Source of the DNA: a virus
Lineage: Duplodnaviria; Heunggongvirae; Uroviricota; Caudoviricetes
DNA length: 32,620 nt
IMG/VR virus record: IMGVR_UViG_2861048470_000001
Reading direction: 5' to 3' (one strand)
Below, piece after piece: positions 1 through 1,769 of the stretch (within the stretch, counting starts at the first letter, position 1; each line of letters begins with the position of its first letter). The notes beneath the pieces are model-generated. The model was not told the DNA's origin, did not search any database, and saw only the letters and a list, made by a program, of their open reading frames with translations. The position numbers were made by a program, and so were the translations under genes.

Positions 1-1011
1 TTATAACGTCACTCCGCCTTTTAGAGGATTCAGCGCGACGGCATTTTGCAGGTAGTCAGGCGCAAGGTGCGCATAGGCCATCGTCTGCTGAATGCTCGCA
101 TGTCCCAGAATCTGTTGCAGTGCGATTATATTGCCCCCATTCATCATGAAATGGCTTGCGAATGTATGCCGCAGGATGTGGGTTGCCTGATTGGGTGGTA
201 TATCTGGCTTCACTCTGCGTAAAATCCCGCAAAACTTCTCATAATCAACTTTGAATAATTTAGCGCTGGCCTCCTCTTTAACTTTTTTCTCCAGTTCCTC
301 AGAAATCGGCACGGTTCGCTTTTTACCGTTTTTGGTTTTCAGGAAGGTAACCCTGCAATTTGTAATCTGTGCTGGTTTTAGCGTGGCAACTTCCGTCCAT
401 CTTCCTCCAGTGCTCAGACATAAAAGTGCGACAAGTAAGTCATCACCATCCAAAACATTTAACAGTTTTTCGATTTCTGCTTTTTCCAGGAACGTCATTT
501 CAGGGTTGGCCTCCGCCAGTGGCGGCAGTCCGTGAATTGGGTGTTGCCCGGAAAATTCATCCAATTGAATTAATTTTGTGAACATGCCGGATAATCGGTA
601 CATGTCACGGTTTATCGTTGCGGCACTGATACCATCACGTAGTCGCATGGAACGATAATCCATCAAAGCTCTTTTGCTCATCCGGCTCACTGGTATATCA
701 CCTATGCCGCTGATGGTTTTGAGCAGATGATTAAACTCTTTTGTTCCATGCTCGTGGTTTTGCCCGTGATATTTCCACCAGATGTCCAGCAACTCACTCA
801 AAGTTCTGCGATCTGCTCGCTGACCTGCCCATTCTTTCTGGCTGGCGTAGGCGATTGTGTATCGCTCAAATGCTACAGCCTCAGCTTTTCTTTCAAATTT
901 CCTGCGGATGCGTTTTCCGTCGCGACCGCGAGGTCTAATGTCCACTTCATAGCGTCCATCATCGAGCTTCTTAATTGACATAAGAAAGCCCTCTGACGCT
1001 GTATTCACCAT
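1..1011 (-). CDS. int: Tyrosine-type site-specific integrase (P2 Int-like)
   Basis: 336-aa ORF; C-terminal region has the tyrosine-recombinase pattern (...ILRHTFASHF..., ...LGHASIQQTMAYAHL...); sits at the prophage end next to the C repressor, as in P2. Confidence 0.9.
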   Translation of the reverse strand: MVNTASEGFLMSIKKLDDGRYEVDIRPRGRDGKRIRRKFERKAEAVAFERYTIAYASQKEWAGQRADRRTLSELLDIWWKYHGQNHEHGTKEFNHLLKTISGIGDIPVSRMSKRALMDYRSMRLRDGISAATINRDMYRLSGMFTKLIQLDEFSGQHPIHGLPPLAEANPEMTFLEKAEIEKLLNVLDGDDLLVALLCLSTGGRWTEVATLKPAQITNCRVTFLKTKNGKKRTVPISEELEKKVKEEASAKLFKVDYEKFCGILRRVKPDIPPNQATHILRHTFASHFMMNGGNIIALQQILGHASIQQTMAYAHLAPDYLQNAVALNPLKGGVTL

Positions 1012-1050: not shown

Positions 1051-1344
1051 TTAACCAGTCTGTTTTTCGGAGTGGTCTGATTCTGTTGGTTTTTGCCCAA
1101 TGTGTGCGAGAGCCGGCGCGATCTGACCAGCTTGTGGTGACGTATCACCAGTCATTAACCAGAGCGTATATTTTTTAAATAAAGGCGTATTTGTGACTCG
1201 CATAACGATGCTGAGACCAGGGTCTTTATGCCCACTTTCGTAATTTTTGACTGTTCCTAGAGCTATCCCGCTAATTTCGCTGAATTTCGCCTGTGTTAAG
1301 CCTTCTGCTTTCCTAATCGCTTTCAGTTTTTCGAATGTCTGCAT
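1051..1344 (-). CDS. C: Immunity repressor C (helix-turn-helix)
   Basis: 97-aa ORF with an N-terminal HTH (LTQAKFSEISGIALGTVKNYESG); transcribed divergently from cox immediately beside int. Confidence 0.85.
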   Translation of the reverse strand: MQTFEKLKAIRKAEGLTQAKFSEISGIALGTVKNYESGHKDPGLSIVMRVTNTPLFKKYTLWLMTGDTSPQAGQIAPALAHIGQKPTESDHSEKQTG

Positions 1345-1496
1345 TTGACAGTAACCTATTGGTGACTTATATTCCCGTCAAAAGGTTGTGTATTGGTGAC
1401 CTTTTGAGTGTGTTAGCCAGTCCCTAGAAAGGACAGGGGCGACCTAGAAGGGACTGGATCTAATAAGGGTAACACGAAAGCAAAAAGGGCTAATCA
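1345..1496. promoter_or_regulatory. C/cox lysis-lysogeny switch region (Pe/Pc promoters and operators)
   Basis: 152-bp intergenic between divergent C and cox. Contains a 10-bp direct repeat TATTGGTGAC at 1357-1366 and 1391-1400, and an inverted repeat CCAGTCCCT (1417-1425) / AGGGACTGG (1449-1457). Confidence 0.6.
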
Positions 1497-1769
1497 ATGG
1501 AAGTCAATGACTATGTGATTCAGTACCCGATTGATGCGGTACATACGGTTAAGTTTGCAGAGTTACTTGGTAAGCCAGAAACGGCTGTAGTCAAGATGGT
1601 AAAAGAGAATAAATTGCCAGTTATTGAGCTTCGTGATCCAAGTAAGCCGAACGCTCGTGTCGGTGAGAAGTGGGTTTTCATTCCAGAGTTTAATCGCGCT
1701 GTACGAGAGGCGTTTTATAACCGACCAGTTGAACAGCGTGATGCATGGCTTTTGTGGATGGGGTTGTGA
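1497..1769 (+). CDS. cox: Cox-like excisionase / transcriptional regulator
   Basis: 90-aa ORF as first gene of the rightward early operon; resembles P2 Cox in size and in motifs (KLPVI..., W.LWMGL at the C-terminus). Confidence 0.75.
   Translation: MEVNDYVIQYPIDAVHTVKFAELLGKPETAVVKMVKENKLPVIELRDPSKPNARVGEKWVFIPEFNRAVREAFYNRPVEQRDAWLLWMGL

Follow-up and report, generated by a model that had tools for sequence, protein, structure and literature searches.

A class III WPhi immunity switch in a P2-like prophage, with two conserved dyads between its convergent promoters

INTRODUCTION

WPhi is a P2-like coliphage of immunity class III. Its Pe-Pc switch was reportedly the subject of work by Liu and Haggard-Ljungquist in 1999. 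According to published data, Pe and Pc are convergent, their transcripts overlap by 82 nt, and the second operator half-site (O2) lies 60 nt from the start of Pc. The WPhi operator has been mapped by mutagenesis, EMSA, and SPR (PMC1904263, PMC1904268), and it comprises two 10-bp half-sites placed 34 bp apart, center to center, on either side of the Pe -10 element (PMC1904268). The first half-site, O1, has been named as TATTGGTGAC, and a mutant, pEE942, has been described (PMC1904263). In published WPhi work, dimers of the C repressor bind each half-site, repression in vivo requires both, and C bends the DNA by approximately 60 degrees; secondary C sites were already dismissed by the WPhi authors. 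Furthermore, the weak promoter Pc is repressed by Cox, which is encoded by the first gene of the Pe operon. In the Pe-Pc region, Cox recognizes a direct repeat 12 nt long (PMC5009727). Elsewhere, the spacers of P2-like switches have been reported as impossible to align.

Here, we analyzed the region between the C and cox genes (positions 1345 to 1496) of a viral stretch of 32.6 kb, which is referred to in its full length as the window. The repeats of this region are the already published repressor-binding sites of WPhi, so that the operator was already known and is re-identified in this work. In addition, we describe two inverted repeats, H1 and H2, whose comparison across heteroimmune relatives provides the new element of the study.

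RESULTS

Identity of the stretch and gene layout

Positions 1300 to 1540 showed 100% identity to the original sequence of the WPhi switch (AJ245959). An 801-bp query covering 1000 to 1800 matched the WPhi records at 99.8% identity and two other phages at 100%, and the remainder of the window is a P2-like genome with approximately 97% identity to other Peduovirus records. The open reading frames comprise int (1 to 1011, minus strand), the gene of the C immunity repressor (97 aa; 1051 to 1344, minus strand), and cox (90 aa; 1497 to 1769, plus strand), which encodes the repressor of Pc and excision directionality factor and is directly followed by an orf78-like and then a B-like reading frame. 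The C protein is identical to WPhi C (CAB54523) across all 97 aa, contains the Pfam domain HTH_3, and is homologous to the P2 C structures 2xcj/2l49 (E = 4.5e-25). Likewise, Cox is 100% identical to WPhi Cox, matches Pfam Phage_Cox (PF10743, E = 9e-24), and is homologous to the P2 Cox structure 4lhf. The C-cox spacer of 152 bp is base-for-base that of WPhi, and the spacer was present in 259 of 5,426 complete Escherichia coli genomes (approximately 5%), as a single copy in each. A switch of the 186 type, based on CI and Apl, was rejected given the 97-aa P2-type C, the direct-repeat operator, and the order of cox, orf78-like, and B-like reading frames.

Early promoter and C operator

The early promoter Pe was located at 1343 to 1379 on the plus strand by a consensus scan and by the promoter annotation of AJ245959 (locus coordinate = window coordinate + 414). 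It is composed of a -35 element TTGACA (1345 to 1350) that abuts the C start codon, a 17-nt spacer, and a -10 element TATATT (1368 to 1373), with 11 of 12 consensus matches. The published 82-nt overlap, combined with the 60-nt distance from O2 to the Pc start, points to a Pe start near 1380.

Two exact plus-strand copies of TATTGGTGAC were found, as the original prediction had claimed: O1 at 1357 to 1366, within the Pe spacer and matching the published half-site (PMC1904263), and O2 at 1391 to 1400, at approximately +12 to +21 of Pe. They are 34 bp apart from start to start, with 24 bp between them, and represent the sole perfect copies in the window, where a second pair of half-site copies was searched for and not found. 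Among 5,000 dinucleotide-preserving shuffles of 1345 to 1496, 31 contained a direct repeat of 10 bp or longer. Additionally, the published mutagenic primer GCATTTGACAGTAACC[10 nt]TTATATTCCCGTCAAAAGG (PMC1904263) fits window positions 1341 to 1386.

The assignment of this direct repeat to the operator of a P2-type C repressor that defines the immunity type was borne out by the identity with WPhi and its published O1/O2, since half-site sequence, length, spacing, and position all match. The repeats had also been expected to lie near the C start, where Pe and Pc face each other; this held for Pe, which overlaps them, but not for Pc, which lies approximately 100 bp away and abuts cox. The proposal that the spacing between the copies decides immunity is not supported, as published WPhi deletions that cut the distance to 2.5 or 2 turns of the helix did not impair repression in vivo.

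Conservation within the immunity type, another expectation, was evident in the 36 IMG/VR loci with a C identity of at least 99%: both half-sites were perfect in 33, and in each of the remaining 3 a single base was substituted, at position 1 or 2 of one of the half-sites, in line with the tolerance of single half-site mutations known from published work. Natural half-site variants among WPhi-type loci (L028, L040, L058, and L052) read TGTTGGTGAC, CATTGGTGAC, and AATTGGTGAC and differ only at positions 1 and 2. This natural variation suggests that the half-site core may be the 8-bp TTGGTGAC.

A further copy of the half-site with one mismatch, TATTTGTGAC, occurs inside C at 1188 to 1197 on the plus strand, in the same orientation and 169 bp upstream of O1. 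It was rejected as a third operator because the half-sites of seven heteroimmune relatives are not accompanied by a comparable extra copy, and it is probably a chance match.

Lysogenic promoter and candidate Cox operator

Pc, which transcribes C, was placed at 1461 to 1497 on the minus strand, with a start near 1461, by transferring the promoter feature of AJ245959 through the 100% identity. The sigma-70 consensus scan that found Pe gave no match at this site. Between the two promoters, an imperfect direct repeat, CCTAGAAAGGACAGG at 1423 to 1437 and CCTAGAAGGGACTGG at 1443 to 1457, agrees at 13 of 15 bases with a 20-bp offset. Its shared part, CCTAGAA(A/G)GGAC, was the only direct repeat found in the Pe-Pc region besides O1/O2. 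As the sole candidate, the plus-strand repeat at 1423 to 1457, consisting of CCTAGAAAGGAC(AGG) at 1423 and CCTAGAAGGGAC(TGG) at 1443, probably represents the Cox operator, and we infer that both it and its coordinates correspond to the published 12-nt WPhi Cox repeat.

Immediately behind the right arm of H1 lies a GATC (Dam) site (1456 to 1460), at approximately +2 to +5 of the Pc transcript, which is conserved in nearly all of the approximately 30 distinct relative sequences, including Photorhabdus L005. Downstream of it, the minus strand has the pattern TGnTAnnnT in the Pc -10 region, which resembles an extended -10 element. A Dam-dependent control of Pc is conceivable.

Two dyads in the Pe-Pc region

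The inverted repeat that the original prediction placed at 1417 to 1457, but left uninterpreted, is real, with nine of nine complementary bases. This dyad, H1, consists of CCAGTCCCT (1417 to 1425), 23 nt, and AGGGACTGG (1449 to 1457), can be read on both strands, and lies wholly inside the overlap of the two transcripts, its coordinates being approximately +5 to +45 in the C mRNA and +38 to +78 in the Pe mRNA. Its arms bracket the probable Cox repeat, the right arm being within copy 2. Two features were absent from that prediction, namely, the direct repeat at 1423/1443, which shares bases with the H1 right arm, as well as another dyad, H2, composed of TCAAAAGGT (1378 to 1386), 12 nt, and ACCTTTTGA (1399 to 1407). 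H2 is likewise a nine-of-nine inverted repeat readable on both strands (1378 to 1407); it begins at the Pe start site and encloses most of O2. An inverted repeat of at least 9 bp was present in 177 of 5,000 dinucleotide-preserving shuffles of 1345 to 1496, and two together in 4 of 5,000.

Predicted folding energies were -18.7 (plus) and -20.5 (minus) kcal/mol for H1 (z = -3.2 and -4.2) and -10.7 (plus) and -8.5 (minus) kcal/mol for H2 (z = -3.6 and -4.1). The minus-strand leader is predicted to fold as exactly H1 plus H2, with the minimum-energy structure equal to the centroid structure (z = -2.9).

Several explanations of the dyads were tried and rejected. No terminator-like site was found in 1000 to 1800 and no U-run follows H1 or H2 (the sequence after H1 reads AUCUAAUAAG on the plus strand and CUAACACAC on the minus strand), and the missing U-run behind each hairpin excludes an intrinsic terminator. 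A known RNA family was discarded because Rfam 15 gave no gathering-score match in the whole window and only chance-level matches (E = 0.56 to 7.3) in 1200 to 1650. At the start of H2, cgTCAAaaggTTG partially matches the IHF consensus but is not conserved in relatives. Pairing of the H2 right arm with the ribosome site of cox (SD/anti-SD) or with the C start region is WPhi specific and absent from relatives, and both were rejected as general explanations. Additionally, a published WPhi deletion that takes out the left arm of H2 leaves C repression unaffected, so H2 is dispensable for that repression. The dyads are undescribed in the literature covered. In four loci of the L052 type, an A-to-G change in the H1 right arm generates a T.G pair on the plus strand, and copy 2 of the Cox repeat is altered as well.

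Comparison across heteroimmune relatives

The comparative set comprised 104 loci encoding C homologues. In relatives with 60 to 87% C identity, the half-sites and interior repeats differ, but one scaffold is common. The C start codon abuts the Pe -35 element in the motif CATTTGACA, followed by the Pe -10 element; then comes H2, whose 12-nt loop holds the second operator copy, and an 11-nt spacer; finally, H1, of 40 to 43 nt, surrounds the probable Cox boxes and is followed by GGATC and the Pc -10 region. The H2-H1 module measures 88 to 90 nt in most types, and H2 lies approximately 35 to 70 nt from the C start. A scan of viral contigs with the Pe-motif pattern returned mostly chance matches and added only three new switch types.

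Within this scaffold, at least 10 different versions of the H1 stem occupy the same position through compensatory substitutions. Pairing is kept in CCAGTCCCT, CCAGCC, CCAACC, CCAGAC, CCAGTTGC, GCCAAC, and AACCCCTT, as well as in the Photorhabdus version AAACACCTT, and further variant stems at this position are AACCCCTT/AAGGGGTT in L177 and AAACACCTT/AAGGTGTTT in Photorhabdus L005. In H2, the outer pairs covary as C-G, G-C, or T-A around a nearly invariant core, AAGGT-12 nt-ACCTT (loci L002 to L105).

The alignment of H1 was anchored on CCA and GGATC at its arms, and H1 emerges only in this manner. Across 17 types, 83.7% of the cells in this anchored alignment were paired, versus 19 to 47% when the arms were slid, and four pairs had changed on both sides. 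The corresponding values for H2 (20 types, anchored alignment) were 85% versus 33 to 61%, again with four pairs changed on both sides. The covariation score was reached by none of 500 shuffles for either dyad, statistics that are inflated by kinship among the sequences. With RNAalifold on unanchored MAFFT alignments, H2 was recovered and H1 was not, its left arm being one column off in many rows. Neither dyad had a strand asymmetry of G.U versus A.C pairs (5 versus 6 for H1 and 8 versus 12 for H2); consequently, neither an RNA role nor the choice of RNA was assigned. This comparison, which is new here, shows that compensatory changes keep H1 and H2 in place among heteroimmune relatives.

Side observations on related switches

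Phages of the L072 type (L072/L075/L077; C 70% identical) combine a WPhi-like module of H1, Cox repeat, Pc, and cox with a different module of C, O1, and O2. Those of the L064 type (L064/L065/L078; C 81% identical) match WPhi without a difference over the stretch that runs from the C start to the Pe -10 element and includes O1; beyond it they diverge, with a different O2. These mosaics therefore place recombination junctions inside the operator region.

The second presumed operator copy was inverted, instead of direct, in L074, L002/L085, L081, L084, L093, and L094. In L074, for example, the Pe spacer contains TTAATGAC and the loop of H2 contains GTCATTAA, and the same motif forms a direct repeat in L003. 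If these copies are operators, they would qualify the rule that P2-like C repressors recognize direct repeats.

Between the H1 arms, most relatives (L074, L062, L087, L097, and L076) carry two to three direct repeats of (A/G)AACG(G/T)TT spaced by approximately 10 to 11 bp, a spacing typical of the boxes of recombination directionality factors (RDF) and Cox, and WPhi-type phages have GAA(A/G)GGAC with a 20-bp spacing instead. An inner palindrome, TCAGGA-4 nt-TCCTGA, was also observed in several relatives.

DISCUSSION

As a whole, we are highly confident that this locus is best explained as the WPhi switch, with C acting on O1/O2, the 1423/1443 repeat as its inferred Cox site, and stem-loops as the preferred reading of H1 and H2. 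In this switch, as published for this exact sequence, C dimers on O1, in the Pe spacer, and on O2, just downstream of the Pe start, bend the DNA and silence the strong promoter Pe. Repression of Pc by Cox, in turn, would come about through cooperative binding to the 1423/1443 repeat, just downstream of the Pc start. Since the switch is of the WPhi type (class III immunity), the prophage should exclude WPhi-type phages and not P2 or P2 Hy dis.

The added value of this work is comparative, as heteroimmune P2-like switches that were deemed unalignable have a common fixed scaffold. The conserved dyads are a modest lead, and they leave the classification as the known WPhi O1/O2 operator unchanged. 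If functional, they would offer an experimental entry point to the way in which switches with convergent promoters balance Pe and Pc.

In the reading we prefer, H1 and H2 would both fold into stem-loops within the C mRNA leader, and the Pe leader would carry both dyads too. H1, 4 nt from the 5' end of the C mRNA, could stabilize the transcript of the weak promoter Pc as a terminal stem-loop. Alternatively, the hairpins might pause RNA polymerase over the opposing promoter and tune transcriptional interference; each hairpin end lies approximately 5 to 12 nt from the -10 element of the facing promoter. H1 and H2 might thus constitute an undescribed and conserved stem-loop layer of P2/WPhi-type switches with a fixed 88- to 90-nt geometry, a tentative proposal that we consider possible rather than probable. 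Such a layer could account for a published result that lacks an explanation, in which expression from Pe-cat rose approximately 100-fold after vector DNA replaced the phage DNA, including H1 and Pc, that flanks the WPhi promoter/operator.

A different view is that H1 and H2 act as DNA, either as a symmetric site bound by a conserved protein of the host or the phage or as conserved linkers at the boundaries of recombining modules. The lack of a G.U excess over A.C pairs on either strand is compatible with this view, and so are the cores AAGGT/ACCTT and CCA/TGGATC, which keep both their sequence and their pairing, the mosaic junctions, which fall between the two dyads and immediately beyond the Pe -10 element, and the fixed length of the module in most types. 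However, stems without sequence similarity occupy the same position in L177 and L005, which fits a pairing requirement better than a sequence-specific protein site. Moreover, the distance between the arm centers, 21 bp in H2 and 32 bp in H1, is long for one HTH dimer. We regard a role as DNA as rather unlikely.

H1 could also be a by-product of the Cox-box sequences, with no hairpin involved, its left arm CCAGTCCC being an inverted third copy of the GGGACTGG core. Consistent with this idea, the right arm AGGGACTGG falls inside repeat copy 2 (CCTAGAAGGGACTGG), where copy 1 has AAGGACAGG, and RGGACWGG cores are kept in relatives with WPhi-like Cox regions (L072 and L081). Against it, the relatives with wholly different boxes of the AAACGGTT type (L074, L087, and L097) have arms that do not resemble those boxes, and these arms (CCAGCC/GGCTGG, CCAACC/GGTTGG, and CCAGAC/GTCTGG) are still complementary and in the same position. 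An origin of H1 in the Cox boxes thus seems unlikely. Finally, that the inverted repeat at 1417 to 1457 is a chance feature without function is very improbable: a single repeat of this size arises in 3.5% of spacer shuffles and no function for it is described in the literature covered, but two such repeats were as rare as stated above and the dyad is kept by compensatory substitutions in its many stem versions.

Returning to the stem-loop reading, 5'-terminal stem-loops of the ompA type are said to stabilize E. coli mRNAs, as reportedly found by Emory and colleagues in 1992. The resemblance is an analogy only: with the start sites placed by the published geometry, H1 would begin 4 nt in from the 5' end of the Pc transcript, and the Pe transcript would open with H2 at its first nucleotide.

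Among known switches, 186 is similar in its convergent pR and pL promoters with a dual RDF/repressor (Apl) on direct repeats between them, but it differs in its extra cII gene and in its CI repressor, which acts over long distances through additional sites. P2 Hy dis shares a direct-repeat operator for a P2-type C repressor. The likeness to P2 is greater and includes the Int-C-Pe/Pc-cox layout, convergent promoters, repression of Pc by Cox, and an HTH C dimer on two direct half-sites flanking the Pe -10 element. Nevertheless, the P2 half-sites are 8 bp long and 22 bp apart, against 10 bp and 34 bp in WPhi, and P2 C cannot bind a single half-site. The P2 transcripts overlap by approximately 35 nt versus 82 nt in WPhi, the C proteins are 43% identical, and P2 Cox recognizes TTAAA(G/C)NC(A/C) boxes, to which WPhi Cox does not bind. 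P2 (L106, NC_001895) also has an eight-of-eight inverted repeat, TTTAGTGC/GCACTAAA, at 1433 to 1458, between the Pe and Pc starts and in a position analogous to that of H1; it abuts a stretch read as the P2 cox boxes. With the WPhi switch, in contrast, the spacer, C, Cox, and the sequence, length, spacing, and position of the half-sites are all the same, and no difference was found within 1300 to 1540.
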